This document shows positions 5,128 to 57,045 of a stretch of DNA of 64,000 bases, piece by piece (position 1 is the first letter of the stretch; the number at the start of each line of letters is the position of its first letter). A program made the position numbers and the translations under genes. Source of the DNA: Vicinamibacteria bacterium (lineage in GTDB: Bacteria > Acidobacteriota > Vicinamibacteria > Marinacidobacterales > Marinacidobacteraceae); the NCBI GenBank assembly GCA_963668695.2, contig CAXXLQ010000004.1, positions 1,664,001 to 1,728,000 of the forward strand, in the 5' to 3' direction. The notes under the pieces are model-generated. The model was not told the origin of the DNA, ran no database searches, and saw only the letters and a list, made by a program, of their open reading frames with translations.

Positions 5128-5560
5128 GGGAACGCCGACCTCCGGGCTTGCTGTGAAAATGCAGTTGCGCCGAGCCCTCGACAGAGCAGATGGCGCACAG
5201 GCCCGGGAACGCCGGTGTTCACACCGGCACAGCGGCCCGCAGGGCCGCGGCGGCAGAGACCCCAACCGTCGGGATGGCGCCCGTCTCGGCGCGTACCTCT
5301 CGAGGGCAGGATGGCGCGCGACAGCGGAACCCCCACCGGGAGAACTGGGCTGGCCTCCGGCCGGCATCGCGCGGGAGCGCGAAACCTGTGGCGCTCGCGC
5401 CAGGCCCCGCCACGTGAGTGCCACGCCACCTTTTTCAGCTCCGCCCGCCTACGGCGAGCTACAGCGGTCTTGCTCTCCCGGTAGGGGCTTTCGGATCAGA
5501 CCGCCAGCGCTGCCCGGAGGGCAGCCAAGACCGACGTCGCCGGAGCAGATCCCGGCCTAC
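5128..5560. repeat. Cluster of REP-like palindromic elements, including an 18-nt oligo copy (5331-5348) and an inverted GTAG...CTAC pair (5481-5560)
   Basis: gggaacgccg...ccggca hairpins resemble 19764-19835, 56967-57045 and 61311-61340. Confidence 0.55.
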
Positions 5561-6261
5561 CCCAGCTCCTGGATCCACGACACCGCCTCGGGCGCGAGGC
5601 CTGGTCCGTCGTGTTTTACGTAGAGGTAGAGCGTTTCTACCTGGTCCCGGAGCCGGTTGAGCATCCCCGAAATCACCTTCCGCTCCTCCGGGCCGTATGG
5701 CGGGTCGCGGCGGAGGCGGACATAGGCGAAATCCGCGGTCACCGGGATTTCCGGATCCTCTTCGAGATCCGAGATCCCTGCGACAAGGGCTGCTCCGGCA
5801 CAGCGGCACAGGGTGCGGACCGCGTCGCACTGCCACGAGTCGTGCCGGAACTCGAGCGCGAAGCGGCCTCCCTTGGGAAGGCTTCCGAGGAAGCTCTCAA
5901 GCCGATCGTCGTCCCGGCGAAACCACGGCGGGCACTGAAAGAGGACCGGCCCGAGCCGGTCTCCGAGCGGCTCGAGTGCCTTGAGAAAGTGAATCACGGA
6001 TTCCTCGGTGTCCGCGAGCCGGGCCCGGTGGGTGATTCCCTGGTGCGCCTTGATCGCGAAGCGGAACGCGTCCGGCGTGCTCGCCGCCCACGAGGCCGCG
6101 AGTTCCGGTTTCGGGAAGCGCCGGAAGGTGTGATTCACCTCGACGCTCCGGAAGACGGAAGAGTAGTACGAAAGGAAATCGGCGGGTTTCGTCTTCTCGG
6201 GATAGAAGGTTCCCACCCACTCCCGGAAGCCGTAGCCGGACGTGCCGGCGAACAGTTTCAA
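5557..6261 (-). CDS. DUF72 family protein (YecE-like TIM barrel)
   Basis: GTSG, YPEK, VEVNHTF, LFQCPP, ALEFRH and YVRL motifs; TTG start overlaps the upstream TGA (TTGA). Confidence 0.9.
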   Translation of the reverse strand: MKLFAGTSGYGFREWVGTFYPEKTKPADFLSYYSSVFRSVEVNHTFRRFPKPELAASWAASTPDAFRFAIKAHQGITHRARLADTEESVIHFLKALEPLGDRLGPVLFQCPPWFRRDDDRLESFLGSLPKGGRFALEFRHDSWQCDAVRTLCRCAGAALVAGISDLEEDPEIPVTADFAYVRLRRDPPYGPEERKVISGMLNRLRDQVETLYLYVKHDGPGLAPEAVSWIQELG

Positions 6262-6704
6262 CTGCTCTCGAAGAGGCTTTCGAAGGCGGCCTTCGCGTCG
6301 CGGGCGGTGTCGAGCTTCCTGCCGGTCACATCGAGCATTTCCGTAGGGCGGAAGTGGAGACACTCGTTACCGGCCCACTTGTTCACGATGCGCTCGGGTA
6401 TGTCGGCCCGGCACTCGTACCGTTCCACTGGATCGAACAGCGCACAGTGCAGGCATGACCGAAGCGCCGTGTTGCAGGTGGGACAGGTCGAGCCGACGAC
6501 GATGGAAACCTCGCCCGTGGACCACTGATATCCGCAGCGGGCGCATCGAGTCACGATGGTGGCGCGGCGATCGCCGGCGAGTCGGAGCGTCCGCAGTTGT
6601 TCCGTGTTGCCGAGATCAGCGAGCCGCTCGTTGACCTCCCGCTGGAACCTGCGTTGCTCCTCGTCATCGCGTGGTTTGCGCTGTCCGCGGCGGCGGTACT
6701 TCAT
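6258..6704 (-). CDS. Cys-rich Zn-ribbon hypothetical protein
   Basis: CARC, CPTC and CLHC plus further Cys; C-terminal AKAAFESLF; translationally coupled to DUF72. Confidence 0.8.
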   Translation of the reverse strand: MKYRRRGQRKPRDDEEQRRFQREVNERLADLGNTEQLRTLRLAGDRRATIVTRCARCGYQWSTGEVSIVVGSTCPTCNTALRSCLHCALFDPVERYECRADIPERIVNKWAGNECLHFRPTEMLDVTGRKLDTARDAKAAFESLFESS

Positions 6705-6919
6705 TCGGAAGAAAGATCTACGTTGGATTCGGGGGATGGCTGGGTGGCCATCCGAAGCAATCGCGCAACGGGTGCGCGACACGTTGGCCAATCGGGATGC
6801 CCGGGACGACTCAACGGCGCTGAATCGCCGACAAAAAGAGCAGATCGAGGAGCGCTAGGGACGCGGGCATCGGCCCCGACTGCTGTTCCCGAAGCCTAAC
6901 ATGTCGAGAACATTCGCCG

Positions 6920-7744
6920 TCAAGTCTGGCACCGGGAGCAATAGAAGGACGAGCGGCCGGCAATCGGTATGCGGGCGATGACGCCCCGTCGGCAGTGGGA
7001 ACAGGTGGCCCCTTCGCGTCCGTAGACGAAAAAACGGGCCGAGGTGCTCCGGCGCCCGGCCTCGCCGTCGCTCAGGTAGAGGATTTCGGGAGTCCGGGTG
7101 TTCTCGATCGACCGCCGCAGCGTCCAGCGGATCGCGCGGTGGAGTTTTGCCGCTTCCCGATCTCCAAGCTCGACAGAGCTCCGAGCGGGGTGGATTCCCG
7201 CGCGCCAGAGAGCTTCGGCTGCCTGGATGTTGCCGATCCCGGCGATCCGGTCCTGGTCCATGAGGAGGGCCTTGACGGGGCGACGCGTGGCGCGGAGCAA
7301 GGCGGCCAGCCGCCTCGTGGTGAAAGCCGGCCCGAGTGGCTCCGGCCCGAGCCGGGCGAGTCTCTCCTCATCCCGGGGAAGGCACACCGAGAAGTGGCCG
7401 AAGCGCCGCTTGTCCGAAAAGACCACCCGGCGGTCGCGGGCGATCCCGAGCACCGCGCGGACGGCCGGTGGGTCCGCCTCACCGGATTGACGCAGCGCCC
7501 ACTTGCCGCTCATGCCGAGATGGCTCAGCAGTGCGGGGCCCCCACGGGCGAACTCGATGCGCAGGAACTTGCCGCGCCTCCGGACCGCCGAGACGATCTG
7601 ACCCTCGGCCGCCGCCCGAATGGCACTCTCCGTCTGACCCCGCCGGGTGAGCGGATCGGGAACCGCGACCTCGAGCAGGTGCTCCCCGGCGAGCCAGGAG
7701 GTCAGGTTTTCCCGGTTGGCTTCGGCTTCCGGCAGCTCAGGCAC
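6920..7744 (-). CDS. mutM: Formamidopyrimidine-DNA glycosylase (Fpg/Nei family)
   Basis: N-terminal PELPE, RRGK, HLGMSG, GIGNI H2TH motif, C-terminal CxxC...CxxCQ zinc finger. Confidence 0.95.
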   Translation of the reverse strand: MPELPEAEANRENLTSWLAGEHLLEVAVPDPLTRRGQTESAIRAAAEGQIVSAVRRRGKFLRIEFARGGPALLSHLGMSGKWALRQSGEADPPAVRAVLGIARDRRVVFSDKRRFGHFSVCLPRDEERLARLGPEPLGPAFTTRRLAALLRATRRPVKALLMDQDRIAGIGNIQAAEALWRAGIHPARSSVELGDREAAKLHRAIRWTLRRSIENTRTPEILYLSDGEAGRRSTSARFFVYGREGATCSHCRRGVIARIPIAGRSSFYCSRCQT

Positions 7745-7777
7745 GCGGTATATCGCGGGACTTGCCGGGACCCTGGA

Positions 7778-9721
7778 CTATCCGCCGTTCACGATTTCGC
7801 TGACGGCGCGGTGGGCTTCATCGATGGCGGCCTGCGTGTACGCGTAGGCCCCGGCATCGGAGTTTGCGATGTGGACCCGCCCGAAGGGCTTCCGGCCAAT
7901 CTCGTTCGGGGCCTCCCCGGGGGCGAACGGCGGATCCCAGAGGGAGTTGTATTCGAACGCGTACCCGTGCGGCCAGCGGTTCACGGTTAGCCCGAGGATG
8001 TCGCGGGCCGGGTCGAAACCCCCGGGAGCGAGAGCCCGGGCGAGCTGGCTGCGGGTTTCGCGTTCGAAGGTCTCGAAGCTCATCTGCAACAGGTCGTGCT
8101 GTCCGGCCTGATGCTGGACGCGGGCGCTCGCCCCCGGCAGACACGGTGTGCGCACCGCGTGCAGCACGACGAGGTCCTCGGGGCCGCTCGAGAAGGCATA
8201 ACCCCCGATGCTCACCGGGAAATCGAGCGACACGCTGGCGTGGAATCCTGCCGGGAAGTAGATGCCCGAAGCACCGGCGGCGACGAAGGAAGTCCAATTG
8301 CGGATCAGCACGTTCGAATAGACGAGAGGCACCTTCGGCGGGTAGGCGAGCGCTTCACGCTGCTCCTCGGGGAGTTCCGGCAACAGGTAGGGAATCACCC
8401 GGTTGTAACAAGCGAGCACGATGTGGCGGGCGCCGACCCGGACCTCGTTTCCGTCCTGGACGTAGGTCACGCTTCCCTCACCGCCCGCTCCGTTGCGCAC
8501 CCGCACCGCGGTGCTGTTCAGCCGGATCCGGCACGGCGAGTCCGGACGGTCCAGCGCACCGTAGTCGAGACGCGCCAACACGATGTCCTCCCCGGTGTTG
8601 CCGGCCGCTGCCGCCGGCACCAGCTTTCGCACCAGCAGGCGGGCGATGGTGGCGCTTCCGTCCGGGAAGTGGAAGATGTAAGGATCCGGACTTGCGTTCG
8701 GTTTCGCGGTGAGGCTGAGGCGAGGGTGGTCTTCCCTGGCGAGACCCAGGTCCTGAAAGCCTGGGTAGCCGAGCGACCAGAGGTCGAGAGCGGGAACCCC
8801 GTCCGGGCCCATCCCGAACAATCCGTGGGTCCGCTGGCGGTAGAGCGCCTGGATTTCGGCGCCCATTCCGAGCGCCTCGAGGAAGGCCTCGTAGCTGGCG
8901 GCTGCCAACCGTTCCTTTTTGGCCGCTTCACCGAGTTCGGGCCAGGGATCGCCGGGCGCCTCGTTCAGGCGAACGAAATCCGACCGCCCGGCTTCGCTCA
9001 GCGGCGCCTCGGCGGCGAACTCCCCGGCGGGACGCCGGCCCATACCGGTCACCAGACGGTCCTCCCCGAAATCCTCGCTTCCGAAGAAGACCGCGTTCTG
9101 CAACCCGTGCGATCGGTAGAGCTCGCGGTCGAAGGCGGTGGAAAAAAGATCGAGATCGACACCCAGATCGTCCAGCAGACCGTGGACCGCCGGGCTGAAG
9201 GTAGAGGGCGAGTCGAGCGACTGGGTTCCGCCGTAGCCGAGCACGGTGCGGCCCTCGTGGGTGAACTCGTTCCGCTTCGCGTGTCCTCCGAAGTCGTCGT
9301 GGTTGTCGAGCACCAGGATGCGGGCATTGGGGCCGAAGGCCTTTCGGTAGAACCAGGCAGCGCTCAAGCCGCTGATGCCGCCACCGACCACCACCAGATC
9401 GAACTGCCCACCGTCCACCGCGCCCGAGTCGTCCCAGGGACCGGTATTCGCGACGCGGTCGCGCAGTTCATGGGCCACCTCGAAGGAACCGGGGTGGCTG
9501 CCCCGCAGTCCGGTCAGCGCCGGTGGATAGGGGCCACTCGGCCCGGGCGTCGTGCAGGCTCCCAGCAGCCATCCGGAAGCTCCGGGAAGCGTGAGCGCAC
9601 CGAGGCCCAACGGAATCCCGTTCAGGAAGTCCCTCCGGCTGATTCCTCGCTCCATCCCGAGCTCGCGGTCACGGTTCCGGGTCTCGCCGGCTGAATGCGT
9701 GGAGTCTCGATTCCTTGGCAT
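7778..9721 (-). CDS. Tat-exported FAD-dependent oxidoreductase, spermidine dehydrogenase (SpdH)-like
   Basis: SRRDFL Tat motif; YPPALTGLRGSHPGSF; GGGISG; DNHDDFGGHAKRNEF; VNRWPHGYA. Confidence 0.85.
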   Translation of the reverse strand: MPRNRDSTHSAGETRNRDRELGMERGISRRDFLNGIPLGLGALTLPGASGWLLGACTTPGPSGPYPPALTGLRGSHPGSFEVAHELRDRVANTGPWDDSGAVDGGQFDLVVVGGGISGLSAAWFYRKAFGPNARILVLDNHDDFGGHAKRNEFTHEGRTVLGYGGTQSLDSPSTFSPAVHGLLDDLGVDLDLFSTAFDRELYRSHGLQNAVFFGSEDFGEDRLVTGMGRRPAGEFAAEAPLSEAGRSDFVRLNEAPGDPWPELGEAAKKERLAAASYEAFLEALGMGAEIQALYRQRTHGLFGMGPDGVPALDLWSLGYPGFQDLGLAREDHPRLSLTAKPNASPDPYIFHFPDGSATIARLLVRKLVPAAAAGNTGEDIVLARLDYGALDRPDSPCRIRLNSTAVRVRNGAGGEGSVTYVQDGNEVRVGARHIVLACYNRVIPYLLPELPEEQREALAYPPKVPLVYSNVLIRNWTSFVAAGASGIYFPAGFHASVSLDFPVSIGGYAFSSGPEDLVVLHAVRTPCLPGASARVQHQAGQHDLLQMSFETFERETRSQLARALAPGGFDPARDILGLTVNRWPHGYAFEYNSLWDPPFAPGEAPNEIGRKPFGRVHIANSDAGAYAYTQAAIDEAHRAVSEIVNGG

Positions 9722-9835
9722 CTCGCTGCCAATCTTCCCACGCCCGGACGAGGTGCAAGACGAGGTGAAACTCGCCACCCTCCGGATTGTCCGGTAAATT
9801 GGGCGTTCCCTTTAGCCTTACCGGAGGCTTGTTCC

Positions 9836-10987
9836 ATGCACACTTCGAAGTCCCGACGCGAGACGCTGCGCGTCCTTTCCGCACTCGCCGCCGCCGCGGC
9901 CCTCCCGAAGGGCGTCTTTGCCGGCTTCCCCGGCCTGCAGGACGAAGAGGTCATCCCCTTCACCGACATCGGCGAGGAGTTCGCGACGATGCGCGGTGAA
10001 CACCCGTTCCGCCTCGATCTGCGGGAGTTGCGCACCTTCATCACCCCGAATGACGACTTCTTCTCCGTCGCCCACTACAACCGGCCGGAGATCAACGCCG
10101 CCGGCTGGTCGCTGCGGCTTGACGGCCTCGTGGAACGCCCCGCTACCTACGCCCTCGATCAGTTGCGCGCCATGCCCCGCGTGGAGAAAACGGTCACCTT
10201 CGAGTGTTCCGGAAACCAGGCGATCCGGCACCACGGCATGGTCGGGAATGCGGTCTGGGCGGGAACGCCGCTGATGCCGCTCATCGAGGCCGCGGGACCG
10301 CACCAGACGGCGATCGAGACGGTCTTTTGGGCCGCCGACGAGGGGACCGAGACGATCCGCAACAACGAATATCCCCAGCACTTCGGCCGGGCCATGTCCC
10401 TCGCGGACACCAAGGCCTCCGGCGCGATCCTCGCGTACGAGATGAACGGCGAAGCACTGCCCGCCAAGAACGGCTTCCCGCTCCGGCTCATCGTGCCCGG
10501 TTGGTACGGCATCAGTCACGTGAAGTGGCTTACCCGCATCCAGCTCGCCGACCGGCGCCTGATGAACCGCTTCATGGGCCGCGACTACGTGACCATCATC
10601 GGCGAAGAGATGGACGGCGAAACCGTGTGGTTCGAACGCTCGGTGACGACCCAGCGCATCAAGTCGGTGGTTGCGCGGGTCGCGCGCACCGCGGGTGGCG
10701 GCACCCGGGTCTTCGGGGTGGCGTGGAACGACGGAACGCCGATCCGCGAGGTCAAGGTGCAGATTGACGGCGGGGACTGGATGCCGGCGACGCTCGAACG
10801 TTCGGGCAACCCCTACGCCTGGACCTTCTGGAACCTGGAGACCGGCGCGCTCGGCCCGGGCGAGCACAAGCTGGTCTCGAACGCGGTGGACGAACTGGGC
10901 CGCGAGCAGCCCGCCGACCTCAGCCTCAAGAAGACCTACTGGGAGGACAACGCTCAGTTCACCCGCTCGGTCATGGTGACCGGGTAG
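9836..10987 (+). CDS. Sulfite oxidase-family molybdopterin oxidoreductase (Tat-exported)
   Basis: SRRETL; ECSGN Mo-ligating Cys; LAYEMNG...GFPLRLIVPGWYG...VKWL; C-terminal Ig-like dimerisation domain. Confidence 0.92.
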   Translation: MHTSKSRRETLRVLSALAAAAALPKGVFAGFPGLQDEEVIPFTDIGEEFATMRGEHPFRLDLRELRTFITPNDDFFSVAHYNRPEINAAGWSLRLDGLVERPATYALDQLRAMPRVEKTVTFECSGNQAIRHHGMVGNAVWAGTPLMPLIEAAGPHQTAIETVFWAADEGTETIRNNEYPQHFGRAMSLADTKASGAILAYEMNGEALPAKNGFPLRLIVPGWYGISHVKWLTRIQLADRRLMNRFMGRDYVTIIGEEMDGETVWFERSVTTQRIKSVVARVARTAGGGTRVFGVAWNDGTPIREVKVQIDGGDWMPATLERSGNPYAWTFWNLETGALGPGEHKLVSNAVDELGREQPADLSLKKTYWEDNAQFTRSVMVTG

Positions 10988-10994
10988 GTCGGTC

Positions 10995-12167: not shown

Positions 12168-12228
12168 CGTCCTAGCCAGCTCGCCACCGGGAGAGGCCGC
12201 GGACACAGACAACCCTCCGACGCGGGAG

Positions 12229-12366
12229 GTGGAAATCAAAGGCGGCTATTGAGGGCGCCTATTGAGCCGTCCCCCTTCGGGCCGCCGCTTGGGGATGGGT
12301 GGGTCTTCGCGCGACAGCCCCCGGCTACGCCGGACGCCGGAGGTAAGGAGGTGAACTTTCCAGCGC
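12229..12366 (-). ncRNA. Candidate ~140-nt structured small RNA (unassigned family)
   Basis: Lies between convergent genes; extended -10 upstream; 5' UGGAAA pairs with 3' UUUCCA; internal hairpins; contains UCACCUCCUUA. Confidence 0.45.
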
Positions 12367-12372
12367 AATGAA

Positions 12373-18036: not shown

Positions 18037-18822
18037 TTAACAGCCGGTGGTGAAACCCACGTGAGCGCCGAGGCCGGTGAGGCGCCCGGCTGACAAGGCG
18101 CGTGAGGGAGGAATACCGGGTGTATTTCGACCGAAACGCAACGCAGAACGCAGCGAAGCGGAGTGGTGAACAGCTTGTGGTGGAACCCCCGTGAGCGCCG
18201 AGGCCGGCGAGGCCCAGTTCTCCCGGTGGGGCCAGTCCTCCCGGTGGGGGCCCGGTTGACAAGGCGCGTGAGGGAGGAGCCCCCACCGGGAGAACTGGCC
18301 CGGGTGTATTCCGACCGAAACGCAACGATGAGCGGCGCGAAGCGACGCGGTGAACAGCCGGTGGTGGAACCCCCGTGAGCGCCGAGGCCAGTGAGGCCCA
18401 GTTCTCCCGGTGGGGCCAGTCCTCCCGGTGGGGGCCCGGCTGACAAGGCGGGTGAGGGAGGAGCCCCCACCGGGAGAACTGGCCCGGGTGTATTCCGACC
18501 GAAACGCAACGATGAGCGGCGCGAAGCGACGCGGTTCAGCCGGGATGGATCGCCGGCCGAGCCCCCACCGGGAGAACTGGGCCGCGTGGGTTTCATCACC
18601 GGTTGTTTGGCCGGGATGGATCGCCGGCCGAGCCCCCACCGGGAGAACTGGGCCGCGTGGGTTTCATCACCGGTTGTTTGGCCGGGATGGATCGCCGGCC
18701 GAGCCCCCACCGGGAGAACTGGGCCGCGTGGGTTTCATCACCGGTTGTTGGGCCGGGATGGATCGCCGGTCGAGCCCCCACCGGGAGAACTGGGCCGCGT
18801 GGGTTTTGCCACAGGCTGTTCA
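18037..18822 (+). mobile_element. Nested composite MITE: three left-end modules followed by four 71-bp right-end modules
   Basis: TTAA-CAGCCGGTGGTGAAACCC at the left; left ends at 18041, 18171 and 18355; 71-nt period at 18539, 18610, 18681 and 18752; ends GGGTTTTGCCACAGGCTGTTCA. Confidence 0.8.
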
Positions 18823-19766: not shown

Positions 19767-19835
19767 TAGGGACCGCCGGCCAGTTCTCCCGGTGGGGGCC
19801 TTCAGACCGGCACCGCCCGCCAGCGGCGGGCGAAT
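19764..19835 (+). repeat. GTAG-headed REP-like element carrying an 18-nt oligo insert
   Basis: gtagggaccgccggcc[agttctcccggtggggcc]ttcagaccggca; similar copy at 56967-57045. Confidence 0.65.
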
Positions 19836-21885: not shown

Positions 21886-22072
21886 CTAACAGCCTGTGGT
21901 GAAACCCATGTGAGCGCCGAGGCCGGTGAGGCGCCCGGCTGACAAGGCGCGTGAGGGAGGAATACCGGGTGTATTTCGACCGAAACGCAACGCAGAACGC
22001 AGCGAAGCGGAGTGGTTCAGCCGGGATGGATCGCCGGTCGAACGCCGCGTGGGTTTTGCCACAGGCTGTTAA
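21886..22072 (+). mobile_element. Minimal 187-bp MITE lacking 18-nt inserts
   Basis: CTAA-CAGCCTGTGGTGAAACCCA ... TGGGTTTTGCCACAGGCTG-TTAA; ~25-bp imperfect TIRs. Confidence 0.8.
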
Positions 22073-23574: not shown

Positions 23575-23797
23575 TTAACAGCCTGTGGTGAAACTCACGT
23601 GAGCGCCGAGGCCCCCACCGGGAGAACTGGCGGCGAGGCGCCCGGCTGACAAGGCGCGCGAGGGAGAAATACCGAGTGTATTTCGACCGAAGCGCAACGA
23701 TGAGCGACGCATAGCGGCGCGGTTCAGCCGGGATGGATCGCTGGCCGAGCCCCCACCGGGAGAACTGGGCCGCGTCACTCCGTTCGCGGACTGTTAA
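23575..23797 (+). mobile_element. MITE copy with two 18-nt inserts and a variant right end overlapping the amidohydrolase stop codon
   Basis: TTAA-CAGCCTGTGGTGAAAC ... GACTG-TTAA. Confidence 0.7.
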
Positions 23798-28181: not shown

Positions 28182-28608
28182 CAGCCCGTGGTGAAAGCAC
28201 CCCGCACGAGCCCCAGGACGTCCCGCGCGCCGAATCTGGCGGTTTGGGTGCGTGCGGGGCGCTTTCCCCACGGGCAAGCAGCCTGTAGACAGAGTCTCGT
28301 GGCGTTCGAGCGGCGTTGCATCCCGGCTGAACCGCCCCGCTTCGCGTGGCTCATCGTTGCGCTTCGGTCGAAATACACCCGGTATTCCTCCCTCGCGCGC
28401 CTTGTCAGCCGGGCGCCTCGCCCCCACCGGGAGGACTGGCCGCTCTCGGCGCTCACGCCACTCTGTCCACAGGCTGCTGGTGGTGCGAATCGCTGCACGA
28501 TTCGCTCCACCGTCTCTTGTGGGGAGGGGAAACCCCTCCCCACACCCCACCTCCGCGCCGCTACGCGCCGCGAATGGATGCCTTCAGGGTTTCACCACAG
28601 GCTGTTAG
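28178..28608. mobile_element. Composite MITE: outer TIR pair enclosing an inverted inner MITE (~28276-28480) and an 11-bp hairpin
   Basis: CTAG-CAGCCCGTGGTGAAAG ... TTTCACCACAGGCTG-TTAG; inner GCAGCCTGTAGACAGAG...CTCTGTCCACAGGCTGC; GTGGGGAGGGG-AAA-CCCCTCCCCAC. Confidence 0.75.
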
Positions 28609-28664
28609 CGGGTGAGGGCCCGGTTCTCCCGGTGAGGGCGCCCGGCCATGGCAGAATGGGTGTC

Positions 28665-28907
28665 ATGGCCGAGGGAGTCGTGAAGTGGTACGACCGCAAC
28701 CGGGGCGAAGGATTCATCCAGCGCTTCGACGGGCCGGACGTCCACGTGCCGAGCAGCGCCCTGCTGGACCCGGAGCCGGGGTTCCTGATCGAGGGTCAGG
28801 CGGTGGAGTTCGAGCTGCTCAAGATTCCCGGAGGTTTCCGTGCTCGCGGGGTGCGGGTGGTGGCGTCGGGGTTCCGCCGGGGTCCGAAAGCGTCGGCTTC
28901 GCAGTAG
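28665..28907 (+). CDS. Cold-shock domain protein
   Basis: GVVKWY...GEGFI...DVHV...EGQAVEFE. Confidence 0.85.
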   Translation: MAEGVVKWYDRNRGEGFIQRFDGPDVHVPSSALLDPEPGFLIEGQAVEFELLKIPGGFRARGVRVVASGFRRGPKASASQ

Positions 28908-28965: not shown

Positions 28966-29207
28966 TTAACAGCCTGTGGTGGAACCCGGGTGAGCGCCGA
29001 GAGCGGTCAGTCCTCCCGGTGGGGGCGAGGCGCCCGGCTGACAAGGCGCGTGAGGGAGGAGCCCCCACCGGGAGAACTGGCCCGAGTGTATTTCGACCGA
29101 AACGCAACGCCGAGCGCCGCAAAGCGCCAGTTCTCCCGGTGGGGGGGCGGTTCAGGCGGGATGGATCGCCGCTCGAACGCCGCCTGGGTTTCACCACAGG
29201 TTGTTAA
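28966..29207 (+). mobile_element. MITE copy with three 18-nt inserts
   Basis: TTAA-CAGCCTGTGGTGGAACCC ... GGGTTTCACCACAGGTTG-TTAA. Confidence 0.8.
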
Positions 29208-29239
29208 GCCCTGGTGCCGCCCCCGCCCGGGACGCCGGG

Positions 29240-31955: not shown

Positions 31956-31957
31956 GA

Positions 31958-33460
31958 TCAGCCCTCCGTCGGGGCGTGGCTCCCCGGCGCTTCCGGGGTG
32001 TCCACGATCCAGGCGTCCTTCGAGCCGCCTCCCTGGCTGGAGTTCACCACCAGGCTGCCTTTCTTGAGCGCGACGCGGCAGAGGCCTCCGGGAACGATCT
32101 CGGTCCGTTCCGCCTGCAGAATGAACGGCCGGAGGTCCACGTGCCGCGGCTCGATGTGCGCCCCGATGAGGCACGGGGCCCGCGACAGGGCGAGCGTCGG
32201 TTGAGAGATGTAGTTGGCCGGGTTCTCCCGGAGCGCTCTCGCAAACTCGGTCCGCTCCGCCTGCGATGCGTGGGGCCCCACCAGCATCCCGTAACCCCCG
32301 GACTCCCCGACCATCTTCACCACCAGCTTGTCCAGGTTGGCGAGGGTGTAGGAAAGTCCGTCGCGCTCGCGGCAGAGCGTGGTCGGGATGGGATTGATCA
32401 ACGGCTCCTCGCCCAGGTAGTACTTGATGATGCGCGGCACGAAGGCGTAGACCGCCTTGTCGTCGGCGACGCCGGTCCCGGGGGCGTTCGCGATCACGAC
32501 CCGGCCCGCCCGGTAGGCGTGGAACAGTCCCGGCACGCCGAGGACCGAGTCTTCGCGGAAGGTGACCGGGTCGATGAAGTCGTCGTCGATACGGCGATAG
32601 ATCACGTCCACCTGCCGCAGCCCGGCCGTGGTCCGCATGAACACGCGCCGGTTGTGCACCAGCAGGTCGCGTCCCTCGACCAGGTCGATGCCCATCTGAC
32701 GGGCCAGGAAGGCGTGCTCGTAGTAGGCCGAGTTGTAGACGCCGGGGGTGAGCAGGACGATGTTCGGATCGTTCACCTGCGGCGGCGCGAGTGACCGGAG
32801 CGTGTCGAGCAGCAGCCGGCTGTACTGCTCCACGTCCCGCACCCGTGAACGCCGGAAGAGTCGCGGCATGCTGCGCTTGAGCGCATCGCGGCAGGCGAGC
32901 ATGTAGCTGACGCCGGAAGGCACCCGGAGGTTGTCTTCAAGGACCGCGAACCCGTCGTGGGTCCGCACCAGATCGGTTCCGCAGACCGAGACGTAGGCCC
33001 CGTGCGGGACCTCGATGCCCCGCATTTCGATCCGGTAGTGCTTGTTGCCGTACACCAGTTCGGCGGGAATCACGCCGTCCCGGATGATGAGACCCCCGTG
33101 GTAGATGTCGTGCAGGAACAGGTTAAGCGCCCGGAGACGCTGTTCCAGCCCGCGGGCGACCGCGTCCCAGTCGTCCCCCCGCACGATGCGCGGCAGGCAG
33201 TCGATCGGGAAGACCCGCTCGATGGTCTGCTCGTCGCCGTAGACGGTGAAAGTGATTCCCTCGTGGAGGAACGAGCGGGTGACGCGCTCCTGGATCTGCC
33301 GCAGCTCCTCGGGTGGGGTCTGCCGGATCGTCTCGAAGAAGTCCGCGCAGTGGCTCCGCGGGGACCCGTCGGTCTCGAGCATCTCGTCATAGAACGCCGG
33401 GTTGTGGTCGTACTGACGAAACGCCGGGGTAGCGGCATGGGGCGCCGCAGTTCGGGTCAT
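31958..33460 (-). CDS. Circularly permuted type 2 ATP-grasp protein
   Basis: EDNLRVPSGVSY; LLTPGVYNSAYYEH; VDVIYRRIDDDF; VVNSSQGGGSKD. Confidence 0.95.
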   Translation of the reverse strand: MTRTAAPHAATPAFRQYDHNPAFYDEMLETDGSPRSHCADFFETIRQTPPEELRQIQERVTRSFLHEGITFTVYGDEQTIERVFPIDCLPRIVRGDDWDAVARGLEQRLRALNLFLHDIYHGGLIIRDGVIPAELVYGNKHYRIEMRGIEVPHGAYVSVCGTDLVRTHDGFAVLEDNLRVPSGVSYMLACRDALKRSMPRLFRRSRVRDVEQYSRLLLDTLRSLAPPQVNDPNIVLLTPGVYNSAYYEHAFLARQMGIDLVEGRDLLVHNRRVFMRTTAGLRQVDVIYRRIDDDFIDPVTFREDSVLGVPGLFHAYRAGRVVIANAPGTGVADDKAVYAFVPRIIKYYLGEEPLINPIPTTLCRERDGLSYTLANLDKLVVKMVGESGGYGMLVGPHASQAERTEFARALRENPANYISQPTLALSRAPCLIGAHIEPRHVDLRPFILQAERTEIVPGGLCRVALKKGSLVVNSSQGGGSKDAWIVDTPEAPGSHAPTEG

Positions 33461-34279
33461 TTAGTAGCCCGTGGGTAAAGTGACGTGAGCACCGAGGCTG
33501 GCCAGTCTCCCGGTGGGGGCGAGGCGCGCGGCTGACAAGGCGCGCGAGGGAGGAGCCCCCACCGGGAGAACTGGCCCGTGTGTATTTCGACCGAAGCGCA
33601 ACGATGAGCGACGCGAAGCGACGCGGTGAACAGCCGGTGGTGGATCGCCGGCCGAGCCCCCACCGGGAGAACTGGGCCGCGTGGGTTTCGTCACCGGTTG
33701 TTTGGCCGGGATGGATCGCCAGCCGAGCCCCCACCGGGAGAACTGGGCCGCGTGGGTTTCGTCACCGGCTGTTTGGCCGGGATGCATCGCCGGCCGCTTC
33801 CGGAGCGGGGCGTGAGCACCGCGGAGACCCCGGAGCGAGACGGAAGGGGGACGGGGACACCCGACTCCCATCCCTCTTGGCTCGGGCTTCCGGAGCGGGG
33901 CGTAAGCACCGTGGAGACCCCGGAGCGGAAGGGACCGGGGGCGGGGGTCACCCGACCCCCATCCCTCTTGGCTCGGGCTTCCGGAGCGGGGCGTGAGCAC
34001 CGCGGAGACCCCGGAGCGGAAGGGACGGGGGGCGGGGTCACCCGACCCCCATCCCTTCTGGCTCGGGCTTCCGGAGCGGGGCGTGAGCACCGCGGAGACC
34101 CCGGAGCGGAAGGGACGGGGGGCGGGGTCACCCGACCACCATCCCTTCTGGCTCGGGCTTCCGGAGCGGGGCGTGAGCACCGCGGAGACCCCGGAGCGGA
34201 AGGGACGGGGGGCGGGGTCACCCGACCACCATCCCTTCTGGCTCGGGAATGCCGCGTGACTTTACGCACGGGGTGCTGG
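33461..34279 (+). mobile_element. Composite MITE enclosing nested inner ends and the 90-bp tandem array
   Basis: Left TTAGTAGCCCGTGGGTAAAGTGACG pairs imperfectly with right CGTGACTTTACGCACGGGGTGCTGG; inner right-end modules at ~33640-33780. Confidence 0.7.
33796..34246 (+). repeat. Tandem array of five 90-91-bp units
   Basis: Units start at 33796, 33886, 33977, 34067 and 34157 (gcttccggagcggggcgtgagcaccgcggagacccc...); no unique spacers. Confidence 0.9.
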
Positions 34280-47915: not shown

Positions 47916-48120
47916 CTAGCAGCCTGTGAACAAGGTCGCGCGGCGTTCGAGCGGCGATTCATCCCGGCTGAAACGCGCCGCTTCGCGTCGCTCATCGTTG
48001 CGCTTCGGTCGAAATACGCTCGGGCCAGTTCTCCCGGTGGGGGCTCCTCCCTCGCGCGCCTTGTCAGCCGGGCGCCTCGCCACTCTCGGCGCTCACGCCA
48101 CTTTGCCCACAGGCTGCTAG
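47916..48120 (-). mobile_element. MITE copy (reverse orientation) with one 18-nt insert
   Basis: CTAG-CAGCCTGTG ... CACAGGCTG-CTAG; exact CTAG on both flanks. Confidence 0.85.
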
Positions 48121-49320: not shown

Positions 49321-49998
49321 ATGCTGACGTTCTCGGAAGAAGTGTTGCTACTCCTGCTCGATGAGGACGAGGGCATTTTTCTTTCCGTCGGCAAGAACAC
49401 CCTCGAACTTGCGATGGCGGGCGCCGCGATGCTGGAGCTTGCGTTCGCCCGTCGCATCGAAACCGATCTGCAGCGCCTCATGATTCAGGATCGGGCGCCG
49501 ACCGGCGATCCGTTGCTCGACGATGTGCTGGAGCTGATGGCGGATCGCCGTGAGATCGACCAGACCCGGCAGTGGATCGAGATCCTTGCCGCTGAGAAAA
49601 CGGCCTCGATCCAGGAACATGCGCTCGCCAAACTGGTCGAGCGCGGGATTCTGAGACGCGAGGAGAGGCGGCTGTTTCAGGAGACGATCAAGCACCTCTG
49701 GATCTTCCGCTCGCCGCGGTACTTCCTCGTCGATCGGAAGGCGCGCTACAACGCCAGGACGCGGTTTGCGGACGTCCTGATGGAGGGCGAGATTCCGGAT
49801 CCCCGAGATGTCGCGTTGATCTGTCTCGCGGACGCCTGCGGGGTCCTGCACGCGCATTTCGGGGGAGACCTGGAGCGGGTCGCAGCACGGCTGCAGTTGA
49901 TCCGCCGGATGGACCTGATCGGTCGGGAGATCGCGAACGCGATCAGGGCCATTGACCCCTCGGTCATCCAGTCGATGGCTCACCCGCTCGCCCGATGA
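49321..49998 (+). CDS. GPP34/GOLPH3 family protein
   Basis: LTFSEEVLLLLLD...AGAAMLEL...PTGDPLLD...LVERGIL. Confidence 0.85.
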   Translation: MLTFSEEVLLLLLDEDEGIFLSVGKNTLELAMAGAAMLELAFARRIETDLQRLMIQDRAPTGDPLLDDVLELMADRREIDQTRQWIEILAAEKTASIQEHALAKLVERGILRREERRLFQETIKHLWIFRSPRYFLVDRKARYNARTRFADVLMEGEIPDPRDVALICLADACGVLHAHFGGDLERVAARLQLIRRMDLIGREIANAIRAIDPSVIQSMAHPLAR

Positions 49999-50078
49999 TC
50001 CCGACCTCGGGGCCGGCGCCCCGGGCCAAGGGCGGCACGGCTGTCCCCTCGACGGCGCCACGCGGGTAGGAGCCAGCC

Positions 50079-52328: not shown

Positions 52329-53171
52329 CCCGTCCTTCACGACGCGACGGCGCAACAACAGCGCCACCGCCCAAATACTCGTTCCACTGCGCGAAGAGGG
52401 CGGCAAACCGCCACTCTTTCACATCCCCGCGGGTTACGGCGACATGCGTTTCTTCAAGCACGCCGCGGAAGGGCTCGATGAGGGGCGGCCGGTCTACGGC
52501 TTGCAGCCCCCGGGGTCGTCAACGGCGTCCGTGAAAAGCCGCTCGACTGGCTGATATCCGAATACATCAAGCAGATCAAGAGAGTTCAGAAGACCGGACC
52601 CTATTGCTTGTCAGGGTTCTCCGGCGGCGGGTTGCTTGCCGTCGAGACGGCGAAGACGCTGATCGAGGCCGGAGACCGCGTTGCCTTTCTCGCGGTCATC
52701 GACCCGCCTCTCCGGGTGTCGCGCTGTTTGACGCTGTTCTACGTGAGCCTCTACAAGCTCTGCAAGCTGACGCCGACCGCCGACAGAATCCGGTGGCGGA
52801 TCATCCGCCGCTCAGGCAACCGCCTCTTGCGCTGGGTGTCGGACGAGGGCATGCGGACGCACATGGCGATCTTCCGGGATCTCGAGGTCAGGTCCTATCC
52901 CGGCTGCCTGATCTACATCGGCCCCGAAAGGTCGTGGATACGAGGGCTGAACCGGACCCAGATCGGCAGATCCTGGCTCAAGGTCGCGCGGGACGGGACG
53001 GAGGTCCATTGGACTCCCGGCACCCATCATTCGATGCTGTTGCCAGGACATGTGGAACGTGTCAGCGCCATCCTTCGAGATTGCCTCGTGCGCAGCGACG
53101 CCGCCGATTCGGCAACCCGTTCCGGGCTTCCTCGTGACCCTGCCGTAGCGGATCGCGGGTCGCTGACCTGA
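52318..53171 (+). CDS. NRPS/PKS-type thioesterase domain protein, split by a -1 frameshift near 52507-52515
   Basis: PLFHIPAGYG...VYGLQPP continues in the -1 frame as ...GPYCLSGFSGGG...GTHHSML. Confidence 0.75.
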
Positions 53172-53232
53172 GCGGAGCCTGTCGAGGGGTAGCGCGAATC
53201 GCCGCTGCGGCTGCCGCCAGCGGCGCTGCCCG

Positions 53233-53685
53233 TTAGTCCGTCGAGGGCCGGGCGGGGCGCTCTTTGAACTCGAACTCCTGCTGGCAGCACCAGCAGGGCC
53301 CCGGCAGGTGCGAGGTGATGTTGCAGGTGAAGCAGAAGTAGTAGGGCTCGATCGCCTCGCCGTTTTGGATCGTGTGGAGGCGGATGATCTTTCCGAGGCC
53401 GTCCTCCTGCCAGAGGGCGACCTCCAGCGGATGCATGTTCACCCGTTCGTCGGTGAGGATCTCCACCCGCAGGTCCGCCGGGTCCAGCCGGTGGATCGTG
53501 CCGTCGGGGGATTCGATCCCGAATTCCTCGCCGAAAGAGCACTCGGCGACCGGTCCCGGGGCGCCGTCCTTCAGGCAGATCGCGCGTCCGGAAACGATGA
53601 CCTCACGGCCTTCCCGGGCGGCTTTCGCCACGGCGGGTGCGGCAAACAGGAGGAGCGTTGCCCGCAGCGCCTCGCGTCTCTGCAT
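53233..53685 (-). CDS. Exported hypothetical protein with C-terminal CxxC metal-binding motifs
   Basis: RR signal; YFCFTC...PGPCWCC. Confidence 0.7.
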   Translation of the reverse strand: MQRREALRATLLLFAAPAVAKAAREGREVIVSGRAICLKDGAPGPVAECSFGEEFGIESPDGTIHRLDPADLRVEILTDERVNMHPLEVALWQEDGLGKIIRLHTIQNGEAIEPYYFCFTCNITSHLPGPCWCCQQEFEFKERPARPSTD

Positions 53686-53822
53686 CGTCCGCGAAGGCTA
53701 GCAGGGTTGGGGCCGTTGGCGTTCCCTTTGACAGCGGCGCTGAGGGCGGGTGAAGTGGTAGCCGGGGCTCTTGCTTCAAGGCAGACGCCCCGCCCGAATC
53801 CACGAAGAATCAGGAGGCACGA

Positions 53823-56800
53823 ATGAAGTCCAACCCTGCACGTTTCCTGGCCCTCTTGCTGTTGGGGGCTACGTCGGGAGCCGCGCCCGAAGCACCGCAG
53901 TCCTCCGGCGCGGAGAACGTCATCTTCGACCTCGCCGCCTACCAAGCCCTCAAGTACCGCATGATCGGGCCGCACAAGGGGTCCCGGGTCACCGCCGTGA
54001 CCGGAATCGCCGAACAACCCTGGACCTACTTCATGGGGACGAACGGCGGCGGTCTGTGGAAAACGACGGACGCCGGGGAGAGCTGGGTGAACGTCTCGGA
54101 CGGCTACTACACCTCGAGTTCCATCGGCGCGATCGACGTGGCCGACTCTGACCCTGCCGTCGTCTATGTCGGCACCGGCTCGGCCTGCATCCGGGGGAAC
54201 GTCTCCCCGGGGGACGGCATCTACAAGTCCACGGACGGCGGGGATAGCTGGACCCATCTCGGTCTCCGCGACGCCGGGCAGATCGGCCGCCTGGTCGTCC
54301 ATCCCGAGAACCCGGACGTTGCCTACGCGGCGGTCCTCGGCCATGCCTTCGGGCCGAGCGAGATGCGCGGCGTCTTCCGGACCACCGACGGCGGCGCGAG
54401 CTGGGAGAAGGTGCTCTACGTCAGCGAACGGACCGGCGCGAACGACATCGCGATGGACCCCTCGGACCCGAACGTCCTCTACGCCACCATGTGGACCGGG
54501 GAGCGAAAGCCCTGGACCATGATTTCAGGCAGCGAAGAGGGGGGCATTTACAAGACCACGGACGGCGGGGATACCTGGGCGCAGCTCGAAAACGGACTCC
54601 CCACCGGGATGATCGGGCGGACGGGCATCAGCGTCTCCGCCGCGAACCCGAACCGGGTCTGGGCGCTCGTGGAAGCGCGGGACGGCGGCGTCTATCGCTC
54701 GGACGACGCCGGCGCGTCCTTCATGCTCGTCAATGACGACCGTGAACTTCAGAACCGGCCCTGGTACTACATGCACATCGTCGCGGACCCGGTGGACGAG
54801 GACCGGGTGTACGTGGTGAGCCGCTTTTTCCACCGCTCCGACGATGCGGGGGAGACCTTCGATCTCATCGCCACCCCGCACGGCGACAACCACGACCTCT
54901 GGATCAACCCCGAGAACAACGCGGTCCTGATCGAGGGGAACGACGGGGGCGCGAATATCTCCTGGAACGCCGGCAGCACCTGGTCGAGCCAGTTGAACCA
55001 GCCGACCTCCGAGATGTACCGCGTGAGCGTGGACAACCAGTTCCCCTACCGGGTGTACGGCTCGGCGCAGGACAACTGGGAGGTGCTCTCGGTGCCCAGT
55101 CGCTCGGGTCACTACGGAATGCGGCTCCAGCTCCAGCACTGGGACGGCGTCGGCGGCATGGAGGGCGGGGTTGCGGTGATCCGGCCCGACAACCCGGACA
55201 TCGTCTACGCCGGGAGCACGAGCGGCGCCATCACCCGTTACGACCGCTCCACCGGCCAGATCCGCCCGATCAAGGCCTACCCCGAGGTCGGCGGGTTGCC
55301 CGCGAAGCATCTTCGCTACCGCTTCCAGCGGACCGCGCCCATCGTCCTCTCACCGCATGACCCGAACGTCCTCTACCACGCCTCGCACGTGGTCCACCGT
55401 TCCACGAACGAGGGGCAGAGCTGGGAGGTCATCAGCCCCGACCTGACCACCGGTGATCCCGAGAGGATCAACACCTGGGGCGGCCCCATCACCCGGGAGG
55501 TCTCGAGCGAGGAGGTCTACTGCACGATCTTCGCGCTGGCGGAATCGAAGCATTTGCCGGGGGTGCTCTGGGCGGGCACCGACGACGGTCTCGTCCACCT
55601 CTCGCGGGACGCCGGGGAGAACTGGAAGAACATCACCCCGGCGGCTATGCCGGACTCGGGGACGGTGAACATCCTGGAGGTCTCGCCGCACGCGGCGGGC
55701 CGGGCCTTCATCTCGGTGGTCCGCTTCCGGCTCGACGACTTCCGGCCCTACGTGTTCCGTACCGACGACTTCGGCGAAAGCTGGGAACTCCTCACCGACG
55801 GGACGAACGGGATCCCGGCCGACCAGTTCGTGCGGGTGGTCCGCGAGGATCCAGACCGGAAGGGACTTCTCTACGCCGGGACCGAGTACGGGGTGTTCGT
55901 CTCTTTCGACGACGGGGCGCACTGGCAGTCGCTGCAACTCAACTTCCCGGTGGCGCCGGTCACCGACCTGGTGGTCCACGAGAAGGATCTGGTCCTGTCC
56001 ACCAAGGGCCGTTCCTTCTGGATCCTGGACGACCTGTCGCCGCTCCACCAGTTGACGGACGAGGTGGCGGCGTCGGCGGCGCACCTCTTCGCGCCGCGAG
56101 CGATCCACCGGGTGCGAACTGCGGAAGAGGAAGCGGTGGATGAGTACGTGGGCGGCTGGCGGTCGGTCGCGAACCCCCGCGACCTCTACGGCGGCGCCCG
56201 CATCACCCGGGACCGCCAGGGCACGGACTCCCCGAACGGCGCGACGATCTACACCTGGTTCGCGGAGGCTCCCGAAGGCGAAGTGACCCTCGAGATCCTG
56301 GATGCGGCCGGGGAAGTCGTCCGCCGATTCTCCAATCAGGACGATCCGCCGGATCCTTCCGTGATCGCGCGGCCGGAGGCGCCCTTCTTCAAGGAGGAGA
56401 GCGCCTTCTCCCGGGCGGGGCTGAACCGTTTCGTCTGGGATGTGAGGCACGCCTCGGCGTACGGCGGCTCGCCGCTCGGGCCGCTGGTGGTGCCGGGCGC
56501 TTATCAGGTTCGCGTTTCGACTGAGGGTTGGAGCGGAACCCAGCCCATTGAGGTGTTGCCCGATCCGCGGGTCACGACCACCTCCGAGGAGTTCCAGAGC
56601 CAGTTCGATTTGTTGCTGAAGCTGCGCGACCGGATCAGCGACCTCCACCGGGCGGTGGCGGAGATCCGCGAAATGCGGGAGGGGGCGTCCGCGTCCGTCG
56701 CGGACCGGCTCACCATGATCGAGCGCGAGCTGGTGCCGCTCCCCGAGGACTACGACCGCGAGGATCAGGACTACGCCCCGAAGCTGATCCAGCAGCTCGA

Positions 56801-56948
56801 CCTCCTCTACGGCTACGTGGAGGGCGCCGACTCGCAGCCGACGGACGCCGCCTTCGAGCGATTCGACGACCTGGACCCGGTCCTCAGCGGCCTGCTGGAG
56901 GAACTCCGGCGGGTCGTGGAGAGCGCCGACTTGGGGCAGGGGTCCTGA
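53823..56948 (+). CDS. VPS10/sortilin-like BNR-repeat glycosyl hydrolase
   Basis: SD AGGAGG; many S/TxDGGxxW Asp boxes; HGDNHDLWINP; GNDGG. Confidence 0.92.
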   Translation: MKSNPARFLALLLLGATSGAAPEAPQSSGAENVIFDLAAYQALKYRMIGPHKGSRVTAVTGIAEQPWTYFMGTNGGGLWKTTDAGESWVNVSDGYYTSSSIGAIDVADSDPAVVYVGTGSACIRGNVSPGDGIYKSTDGGDSWTHLGLRDAGQIGRLVVHPENPDVAYAAVLGHAFGPSEMRGVFRTTDGGASWEKVLYVSERTGANDIAMDPSDPNVLYATMWTGERKPWTMISGSEEGGIYKTTDGGDTWAQLENGLPTGMIGRTGISVSAANPNRVWALVEARDGGVYRSDDAGASFMLVNDDRELQNRPWYYMHIVADPVDEDRVYVVSRFFHRSDDAGETFDLIATPHGDNHDLWINPENNAVLIEGNDGGANISWNAGSTWSSQLNQPTSEMYRVSVDNQFPYRVYGSAQDNWEVLSVPSRSGHYGMRLQLQHWDGVGGMEGGVAVIRPDNPDIVYAGSTSGAITRYDRSTGQIRPIKAYPEVGGLPAKHLRYRFQRTAPIVLSPHDPNVLYHASHVVHRSTNEGQSWEVISPDLTTGDPERINTWGGPITREVSSEEVYCTIFALAESKHLPGVLWAGTDDGLVHLSRDAGENWKNITPAAMPDSGTVNILEVSPHAAGRAFISVVRFRLDDFRPYVFRTDDFGESWELLTDGTNGIPADQFVRVVREDPDRKGLLYAGTEYGVFVSFDDGAHWQSLQLNFPVAPVTDLVVHEKDLVLSTKGRSFWILDDLSPLHQLTDEVAASAAHLFAPRAIHRVRTAEEEAVDEYVGGWRSVANPRDLYGGARITRDRQGTDSPNGATIYTWFAEAPEGEVTLEILDAAGEVVRRFSNQDDPPDPSVIARPEAPFFKEESAFSRAGLNRFVWDVRHASAYGGSPLGPLVVPGAYQVRVSTEGWSGTQPIEVLPDPRVTTTSEEFQSQFDLLLKLRDRISDLHRAVAEIREMREGASASVADRLTMIERELVPLPEDYDREDQDYAPKLIQQLDLLYGYVEGADSQPTDAAFERFDDLDPVLSGLLEELRRVVESADLGQGS

Positions 56949-56966
56949 CTCAGGATGTCGCCGCCG

Positions 56967-57045
56967 GTAGGGGAACGCCGCCAGTCCTCCCGGTGGGGAC
57001 CTTCAGACCGGCATCGTCCGCCGCCGGCGGGCCAAACCGCGTAGT
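56967..57045 (+). repeat. GTAG-headed REP-like element with an 18-nt oligo insert
   Basis: Similar to 19764-19835. Confidence 0.65.

Follow-up and report, generated by a model that had tools for sequence, protein, structure and literature searches.

How does a fixed 18-nucleotide (nt) word come to stand at many separate positions inside unrelated repeats? The question is raised by a 64,000-nt stretch (hereafter the window) of the genome of an uncultured, sponge-associated Vicinamibacteria bacterium (GenBank assembly GCA_963668695.2, contig CAXXLQ010000004.1), in which an initial annotation noted about 25 copies of the oligonucleotide CCCCACCGGGAGAACTGG, here called the 18-mer. The window is G000:C4:1664001-1728000, where G000 designates the source genome (4.10 Mb, 67% G+C, four contigs, 91.7% complete, contamination figure 9.3%); other G numbers designate genomes of relatives, g numbers genera and L numbers loci of relatives. 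The 18-mer may well be the constant part of a cassette some 20 bp long, 5′-GC followed by CCCCACCGGGAGAACTGG. Quite possibly this cassette is part of the lineage's system of repetitive extragenic palindromic (REP) sequences and REP-associated tyrosine transposase (RAYT), and is itself the unit of insertion. Judged from sequence comparison, our reading is that of a putative micro-cassette, non-palindromic and belonging to the REP/RAYT system, which is carried along by a miniature inverted-repeat transposable element (MITE).

A search of the window at up to two mismatches returned 24 matches to the 18-mer, 17 of them exact, and recovered all 16 of the coordinates that the annotation had listed. 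Shuffled versions of the window contained 0.04 matches on average and never reached 24. At the same threshold G000 held 1631 copies (1288 exact), a count that includes some duplicates since contigs C1 and C3 duplicate parts of C4. Copies were divided symmetrically between the strands (802 plus and 829 minus) with no strand bias by replichore (428/422 and 343/372), and every 100-kb bin contained at least three. One variant with G at position 13 (A13G) was common (156 copies). The adjoining bases were constrained, with G (88%) and C (86%) before the 18-mer and C or G, then C (92%), after it; a 5′ GC preceded it in 321 of 464 distinct contexts. As first described, the 18-mer is non-palindromic and has no terminal inverted repeats (TIRs), and the 22-nt cassette alone is predicted to have no fold of its own (-1.4 kcal/mol, z 0.7). 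It bears no GTAG tag and has no stop codon in any of six frames. Both orientations occurred in the window, as did 18-nt head-to-tail pairs (18214/18232 and 18398/18416), and 239 inverted pairs spaced 49-56 nt apart were found in G000.

The strongest evidence comes from coding DNA. The annotation had considered all copies to be intergenic, and in the window this held, all 24 lying outside called open reading frames (ORFs); genome-wide it did not, as an exact in-frame copy was present in an AcrB-type gene (ACR_tran, 762 bits). This copy, at G000:C4:394435 and thus outside the window, is inserted at codon 417, where it adds the residues PHRENW and adjoins the conserved LDDSIVV...E motif. The site is filled in both G000 haplotypes and in G001, and empty in 14 other genomes of the genus and in the outgroup G026. 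With [18] standing for the 18-mer, the junction reads GAGCCCG-CG-CGGGAT when empty and GAGCCCG-GC[18]-CGGGAT when filled. The 143 matches of G000 that fell inside crude ORFs, nearly all within the first ~150 codons, were rejected as true coding copies; they arise because each of these ORFs was begun at the first start codon that follows a stop.

Screening of 213 copies at loci of relatives yielded 17 with flanks that were unique or absent in G000, and in alignments with G000 three of these were longer by exactly 18 nt, within ORFs that show coding periodicity. At L093, GGG-CG-CCGCC was replaced by GGG-GC[18]-CCGCC in G001, G004 and G008 (the last with the G13 variant), and G000 and ten more distant genomes were empty, with an ancestral CG or CA. 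At L044, AA was replaced by GC[18], with one mismatch in the 18-mer, in G004 only; at L078, AACC became GCC[18]T, again +18. All four insertions in unique coding DNA are thus exactly +18 nt relative to empty orthologues, and in three of them two target bases gave way to GC plus the 18-mer. Because these coding insertions have empty orthologous sites, the comparison argues that the 18-mer is written anew, unique DNA included.

Other copies of G000 were less informative on this point. The copy at C4:3267755, common to G001, G004 and G008, was rejected as a datable insertion, since it stands at the edge of a segment missing from more distant genomes and has no cleanly empty counterpart; for C4:1898242 and C4:2597725 the orthologous alignments were unusable. 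The copy at C4:1947198, upstream of a gene, is ancient, with point-mutated orthologues across the genus. At this place the last 13 nt of the 18-mer form one arm of a 15-bp hairpin, and the 18-mer is therefore of REP-like ancestry.

Most copies occupy a palindromic MITE of 187 bp, which has 765 BLAST-defined loci in G000. MITE-associated copies made up 1373 of the 1631 (84%), distributed over sites E (354), C (324), B (239), A (221), D (64), A+ (17) and X (3) and including 151 second units of 18-nt tandems; 159 copies (10%) lay in a REP-like hairpin designated REP-1 and 99 in other contexts. The lengths of 263 full-length MITE copies were quantised by 18 (186, 204, 222, 240, 258 nt and so on), and the five main sites were filled in more than 45 combinations, with 96 of the 263 copies empty. 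The initial annotation, comparing copies with an empty MITE, had described the 18-mer as an optional insert at four or more internal sites. Alignment of filled and empty MITE and REP copies, with its 18-nt length steps and site-specific junctions, bore this out for seven MITE positions and two REP-1 positions, and the example that it had given, gagggagga-ATA-ccgggtg versus gagggagga-GC[18]C-ccgggtg, was read as described (empty 21886-22072, filled 28966-29208).

The junctions in these repeats define the insert further. Wherever an empty counterpart exists, GC plus the 18-mer takes the place of two target bases (AC, AT, CG, AA or GC), so that 18 nt are gained. At site C, ATAC (241 copies) alternates with GC[18]CC (256 exact copies), so that three bases are replaced by 21, and no intermediate forms were seen. 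Site E alternates between ACG (211) and GC[18]G (252), and site X between AT and GC[18]. At sites B and A+ (the latter at window position 23613) a clean 18-nt insert follows a pre-existing GC, and at site D the 18-mer occurs only on a GCCC background (GCCC in 17 copies, GCCC[18] in 51). No target-site duplication accompanies the inserts; two bases are lost instead.

Several origins for these junctions were tried and rejected. Quasipalindrome-templated loss at site C fits the 7-bp stem of the empty form and its covarying pairing but leaves the other sites unexplained; for copying of site C from an inverted site-B copy the flanks do not fit; and restriction-type excision at GGCC fits REP-1 but fails at sites C and E. 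A footprint, or solo ends, of a larger insertion sequence was pursued through sub-words of the 18-mer, which are few outside full copies and led only to a repeat family of 17 copies. The excision footprint proposed at the outset was abandoned, as no larger element with the two halves of the 18-mer at its ends was found. The 17-copy family is a third short repeat of G000 (e.g. C4:327509 and C4:2362065). It consists of the first 14 nt of the 18-mer followed by ACCCYCATGATCGGGTCC..., has a hairpin of its own, measures 70-330 nt, contains no ORF and usually stands directly after a REP-1 arm.

REP-1 has the sequence GCCGGTCTGAAGACCGGC followed by GYTCC, and this host repeat folds as a hairpin (-8.3 kcal/mol, z -5.1). 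Both REP-1 copies of the window carry the GTAG tag (19763 and 56966), and the 18-mers reported inside a GTAG-REP family were confirmed there, at 19780 and 56981. Identical 20-nt blocks were shared by at least 15 distinct contexts. Only 24 of the 1631 copies had both 60-nt flanks unique, and most of these still adjoin a REP arm. The copy number is mainly second-hand, through amplification of the MITE and of tandem MITE pieces. In one genome of another genus, four loci (L015, L017, L043 and L057) carry the 18-mer with its last 13 nt (CCGGGAGAACYGG) partially repeated one to three times behind it, and then the arm of a different REP hairpin (GGAGTCCGGCG).

The MITE itself is structured. The empty copy at 21886-22072 folds as a single long hairpin (-52.5 kcal/mol, z -6.2) that is nearly perfect, and symmetric columns of the arms (4-184, 17-172, 20-168 and 67-100) covary in a compensatory manner. 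In the filled copy at 28966-29208 the site-C and site-D 18-mers pair with each other. Blocks of 20 nt are identical between genera in which the copies are otherwise only ~80% alike. The MITE is under constraint beyond neutral decay, be it from a transposase that binds it or from a structured strand. MITE end pairs 600-4000 nt apart enclose unrelated ORFs of no recurring size, and an autonomous partner was not found. The right end with site E filled forms tandem arrays with a 71-nt period (in the window at 18539-18806 and 33633-33796), and because of these arrays, whose 71-nt spacing occurs 109 times genome-wide, parts of the MITE are seen to amplify locally besides being dispersed. Contigs containing the MITE are present in an RNA library, which is no proof of transcription. 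In the window, Rfam at gathering score gave no match, and two sub-threshold hits were due to chance.

The filled and empty states turn over rapidly. Syntenic comparison of 72 locus pairs, from relatives 75-97% identical, yielded 72 clean indels of 10-60 nt, of which 22 involved the 18-mer and 17 of those were exactly 18 nt. Between species these changes ran in both directions and were always at known MITE sites. Among 260 G000 copies in syntenic alignments, 21 were cleanly shared and 157 absent in the relative, most of these absences being of the whole MITE. Contig C1 (144.5 kb) repeats C4:304184-421223 almost unchanged (99.3-99.7% identity), as C3 (31 kb) does C4:3505137-3538141 (97.6-99.7%); the two contigs probably represent a co-assembled strain variant, consistent with the 9.3% contamination. 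C1 and C4 differ by 345 single-nucleotide polymorphisms (SNPs) in 113.8 kb, and site-B and doublet/singlet states still differ between them; between C3 and C4, site C differs in two adjacent MITEs. Among paralogues, insert states were unlinked to all SNP columns (r2 ≤0.07), even columns a few bases away, and SNP pairs flanking the insert sites reached r2 0.6-0.8. A doublet at site B composed of a G13 unit and an A13 unit (the GA doublet) occurs on many SNP haplotypes, for which short-patch exchange between copies is the best explanation. The read data examined, four runs as Logan contigs that break at MITE borders, are silent on filled and empty states at single loci.

In the genomes searched, the 18-mer was found in part of one family only. 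At no more than one mismatch it was present in all 15 other genomes of the genus (8-776 copies each, of which draft assemblies probably give an undercount) and in genera g2, g4, g5 and g6 of the same family, and absent from all 16 genomes of two sister families. Complete genomes of g3 and g6 and a g7 draft gave background-level matches only, even at three mismatches. Dialect variants in the genera that lack the 18-mer were considered and rejected, since matches at up to three mismatches equalled a reversed-pattern control. The MITE does not need the 18-mer. G020 (g6) has 44 MITE matches, nearly all of the empty length, and a single exact 18-mer genome-wide, which lies at site C of an old, diverged MITE (GGA-GC[18]C-GCAGCG; neighbours GGA-ATA-GCAGCG). 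Neither MITE nor 18-mer was found in G017, G022 or G024. In G018 the 18-mer adjoins a different REP hairpin, and in G019 it occupies partly different MITE positions. The exact 18-mer is carried by public metagenome-assembled genomes that bear the labels Candidatus Marinacidobacterium, Vicinamibacteria or Acidobacteria; four unrelated records have one match each, apparently by chance or through mis-binning. Sponge metagenome runs of nine studies contain the stretch. The literature searches made, which cannot prove that none exists, turned up no published description of the 18-mer.

The annotation could match the 18-mer to no described class of element. This no longer stands, because the nearest kin can be named as REP/RAYT, the host hairpin flanking a RAYT gene in sister genomes. 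PF01797 was detected in 12 of 13 other genomes of the genus that were sampled and in G016 (g2) and G023 (g4), and in none of seven genomes of g3, g6 and g7, which have no 18-mer or nearly none. The G001 ORF scored 94.7 bits against NF047646, the NCBIfam equivalog for REP-associated tyrosine transposases (cut-off 80). REP-1 flanks the RAYT gene at three of the four loci examined (G001, G013 and G014), and none was seen at the G016 locus. The search near HUH transposase and reverse transcriptase (RT) genes was thus positive for REP-1 beside RAYT in sister genomes and negative for both RT and RAYT in G000. There, no PF01797 hit was obtained and no tblastn hit with the G001 protein, and at the syntenic locus the left flank is kept while the gene and everything downstream are unmatched in a contiguous assembly.

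From these sequences RAYT appears to be the most plausible writer. The enzyme would cut a single strand and transfer it at hairpins extruded at replication forks; failing RAYT, polymerase template switching onto the very abundant copies might serve. In G000, which has lost RAYT, the copies would by now spread only passively. Amplification of the MITE and of tandem pieces has multiplied most copies, short-patch exchange moves states between them, and slippage gains or drops 18-nt units. The published biochemistry of RAYT fits this role: PMC3333891 describes single-strand cleavage of low specificity by Escherichia coli TnpA_REP, which needs only a dinucleotide, and strand transfer that yields repeat variants. 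The same paper describes E. coli strains that lost the tnpA_REP gene yet kept their REPs (PMC3333891). In some genomes of the present lineage, too, the RAYT gene is lost and the repeats are kept.

A number of observations weigh against the assignment to REP/RAYT and against the cassette as unit of insertion. The 18-mer was present in the RAYT-flanking REP at only one of the four loci (G014). RAYT was undetectable in G000 (1631 copies), G004 (776), G018 (259) and G019 (70), and the one datable lineage-specific coding insertion (L044) lies in the RAYT-less G004. Known HUH "peel and paste" transposition spares target bases and moves hairpin units, and the cassette has no structure of its own. The net change was +19 at the REP-1 site R2 with a CCGGCG flank and in one A+ copy. 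Sites C and E are strictly biallelic, with the ATA/GC[18]C pair found also in another genus. Lastly, the AcrB pattern (G000 and G001) and the L093 pattern (G001, G004 and G008, not G000) conflict on any single tree. One site must have gained the 18-mer more than once, or lost it exactly, or species must have exchanged alleles. A simple RAYT model is weakened in particular by the two-base overwrite, by a cassette without hairpin and by the many copies in RAYT-less genomes.

The alternative that survives best, which we nonetheless regard as unlikely, dispenses with a dedicated enzyme: where forks stall or breaks form in hairpin-rich DNA, polymerase template switching or repair primed by microhomology would choose the cassette as an ectopic template simply as the most abundant short sequence in the cell. 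The overwriting of target bases in register is like a copied patch and unlike cut-and-paste; the AcrB joints share G on the left and CGG on the right with REP-1 copies (GGC[18]CGGCG); most sites lie in hairpin-forming repeats, where forks stall; and copy numbers are high in RAYT-less genomes. Such a process should vary the boundaries and carry donor flanks, whereas the same 20 nt recur in at least 15 contexts and the net change is almost always exactly +18. Moreover, none of the other, equally abundant MITE segments was seen in unique DNA, for which no systematic screen was made.

A purely passive history, in which a few ancient chance insertions in MITE and REP were multiplied by transposition and shuffled by ectopic gene conversion and the 18-mer was never specifically written, is decidedly unlikely as the whole account and goes far within the MITE. 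The 84% of copies at seven MITE sites, the linkage of junction bases at the strictly biallelic sites C and E (r2 0.94-0.97), the same two alleles in g6 with a single old, diverged filled copy left, the movement of the GA doublet between haplotypes and some plain SNPs (columns 42 and 83) as unlinked as the inserts all speak for it. Since sites C and E are biallelic with alleles shared by another genus, recombination among old polymorphisms can account for much of what is seen in the MITE, and most of it is explained by old alleles, conversion and slippage. What passive spread leaves out are the four unique coding insertions, with the same boundaries and two-nt overwrite and at least two of them confined to a young clade or a single genome, and the identical 20 nt in all of the at least 15 distinct contexts. 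The possibility raised at the outset that one ancestral insert per site plus recombination explains the repeat copies is therefore upheld for much of the combinatorial pattern of the MITE and fails for coding DNA. Conversely, the proposal of a micro-element written into many positions is supported by the fresh insertions in unique DNA and needs restriction, as most of the ~1600 copies do not represent independent events: 84% stand at the same few sites and owe their number to the MITE or its tandem arrays.

Less probable again is a selected protein recognition site, either for uptake in the manner of the DNA uptake sequence (DUS) and uptake signal sequence (USS) or as a nuclease target of the NTS/Ssn type, in which the repeat usually flanks the gene of its small GIY-YIG single-strand nuclease; function would keep the word exact, and biased uptake and recombination would spread it. 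The ~1600 copies on equal strands with at least three per 100-kb bin, the exact word and A13G common to different genera while the surrounding MITE is ~80% identical, and the L093 allele distribution, which disagrees with relatedness as if filled alleles recombine, would be expected of such a site. ComEC is present in G000, but also in 10 of 14 control genomes. Within the same family, the complete genomes of g3 and g6 and the g7 draft have background-level matches only, with a single exact copy in G020; a selected signal should also occupy ordinary DNA, and only the 24 copies noted above have both flanks unique; conserved MITE blocks are equally invariant between genera; and no small GIY-YIG (Ssn-like) gene was found, the only PF01541 match being in a 664-amino-acid ORF. 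An RT copying an RNA template, or an assembly or adapter artefact, would suit an identical unit that is sometimes paired head to tail, and both suggestions of the initial annotation are highly improbable, given that RVT_1 (PF00078) has no match in G000 at its 91.7% completeness, that no adapter artefact was found and the 18-mer occurs in many independently assembled genomes and in the sponge metagenome runs, and that orthologous copies evolve by point mutation.

The putative micro-cassette of the REP/RAYT system was compared with known systems. Like REP/REPIN-RAYT repeats and bacterial interspersed mosaic elements (BIMEs), the 18-mer is short, occurs in very high numbers on both strands and is mostly extragenic. 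It lies in or beside hairpins with the GTAG tag, which in sister genomes stand next to a RAYT gene, and as in E. coli BIMEs it mixes with other short motifs in mosaics and forms inverted pairs at fixed spacing. Unlike a REP, it is no palindrome, has no tag of its own and is inserted singly rather than as a doublet; it overwrites two bases, enters the MITE and coding DNA, and is most numerous in a genome without RAYT. In pneumococcal BOX elements, length varies by tandem boxB copies at one place. The present MITE likewise resembles BOX and nested MITEs as a small repeat varying by whole modules, here in steps of 18, but the 18-mer stands at seven MITE places, in both orientations and also outside the MITE. 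Rickettsia palindromic elements (RPEs), as described in PMC10969869, similarly land in frame inside unrelated genes without destroying them, and here 18 nt add six codons with no stop in six frames; RPEs are ~150 bp and palindromic, whereas here the insert is 18-20 nt and coding insertions are a rare exception (four found). With Neisseria DUS/USS and NTS/Ssn (PMC11893778) the 18-mer shares a family-wide conserved word in hundreds to thousands of strand-symmetric copies, often as inverted pairs; unlike them it is almost never in unique DNA, is at background level in whole genera, and has neither dialects nor an Ssn-like gene. The 18-mer is not a MITE, having neither TIRs nor a duplication; the long inverted arms belong to the 187-bp host element. 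Nor does it resemble the miniature IS200/IS605 derivatives (palindrome-associated transposable elements), which have sub-terminal hairpins and insert 3′ of a fixed tetranucleotide that stays unaltered, as it has no hairpins and its target dinucleotide varies between sites and is overwritten.

A bolder version goes further and is, in our view, somewhat unlikely. The 20-nt non-palindromic cassette would then be mobile in its own right and smaller than any such unit known from bacteria. An enzyme, of RAYT type or of a kind not yet known, would write it into hairpin DNA in the single-stranded state and now and then into genes, with a two-base replacement that is not known from any transposase; the MITE would have captured it and would carry several copies, and proteins would receive six-residue inserts.

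The features of the window are listed in the table. In the MITE at 33460-33796, site A (~33503) additionally holds a decayed 18-mer of 17 nt.

Table. Copies of the 18-mer and their host repeats in the window; positions are window coordinates and [18] stands for the 18-mer.
Feature	Position	Strand	Details
Exact 18-mer beside REP-type hairpin	5331..5348	+	5′ dinucleotide is AC
Array of 184-nt MITE units (~2.3)	18037..18535	+	
Site-B doublets in the 184-nt array	18214/18232, 18398/18416	-	Second unit of each is A13G
Site-C copies in the 184-nt array	18281, 18465	+	
71-nt tandem array (3.8 units) of MITE right end, site E filled	18539..18806	+	18563, 18634, 18705, 18776
18-mer in loop/3′ stem of GTAG-tagged REP-1, GTAGTAGGGACCGCCGG[18]GCCTTCAGACCGGC	19780..19797	-	3′ of gene ending 19766
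Empty reference MITE, 187 bp, no 18-mer	21886..22072	+	Single long hairpin
MITE with minor site A+ and site E	23575..23797	+	A+ 23613 (clean 18-nt insert after GAGGC); E 23751
Reverse MITE	28290..28480	-	A13G 18-mer at site A, 28422-28439, plus strand
Degenerate 18-mer (2 mismatches) just outside MITE end	28620..28637	-	Upstream of small cold-shock-like ORF
MITE with three filled sites	28966..29208	+	A 29007 (-, 2 mismatches); C 29063 (+); D 29127 (-)
MITE with 71-nt array	33460..33796	+	Site C 33557; site E 33658, 33729
Reverse MITE, site C filled	47918..48120	-	18-mer 48025-48042, minus
A13G 18-mer in GTAG-tagged REP-1, GGTAGGGGAACGCCG[18]ACCTTCAGACCGGC	56981..56998	-	

Two neighbouring features were also recorded. 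The small ORF at 28656-28907, which has MITE copies on either side, encodes a cold-shock-domain-like N-terminus (MAEGVVKWYDRNRGEGFI...). Directly after the MITE array, five tandem 90-nt units (or a 181-nt period; 95% matches) that are unlike the 18-mer occupy 33796-34247.

To our knowledge, how REP-type repeats spread is still not understood, and we know of no genome in which a defined insertion product has been traced to RAYT activity. The filled and empty sites described here, some of them in unique genes, define such a product to the base: an unvarying block of 20 nt that overwrites 2 nt and so adds 18. This base-exact product gives biochemistry with a sister-genome RAYT a concrete substrate and product. 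The MITE acts as a vehicle for another repeat, and the coding insertions show one way in which proteins acquire in-frame peptides from repeats. The several hundred paralogous sites with fast-flipping states also provide a gauge of short-patch recombination in an uncultured symbiont.

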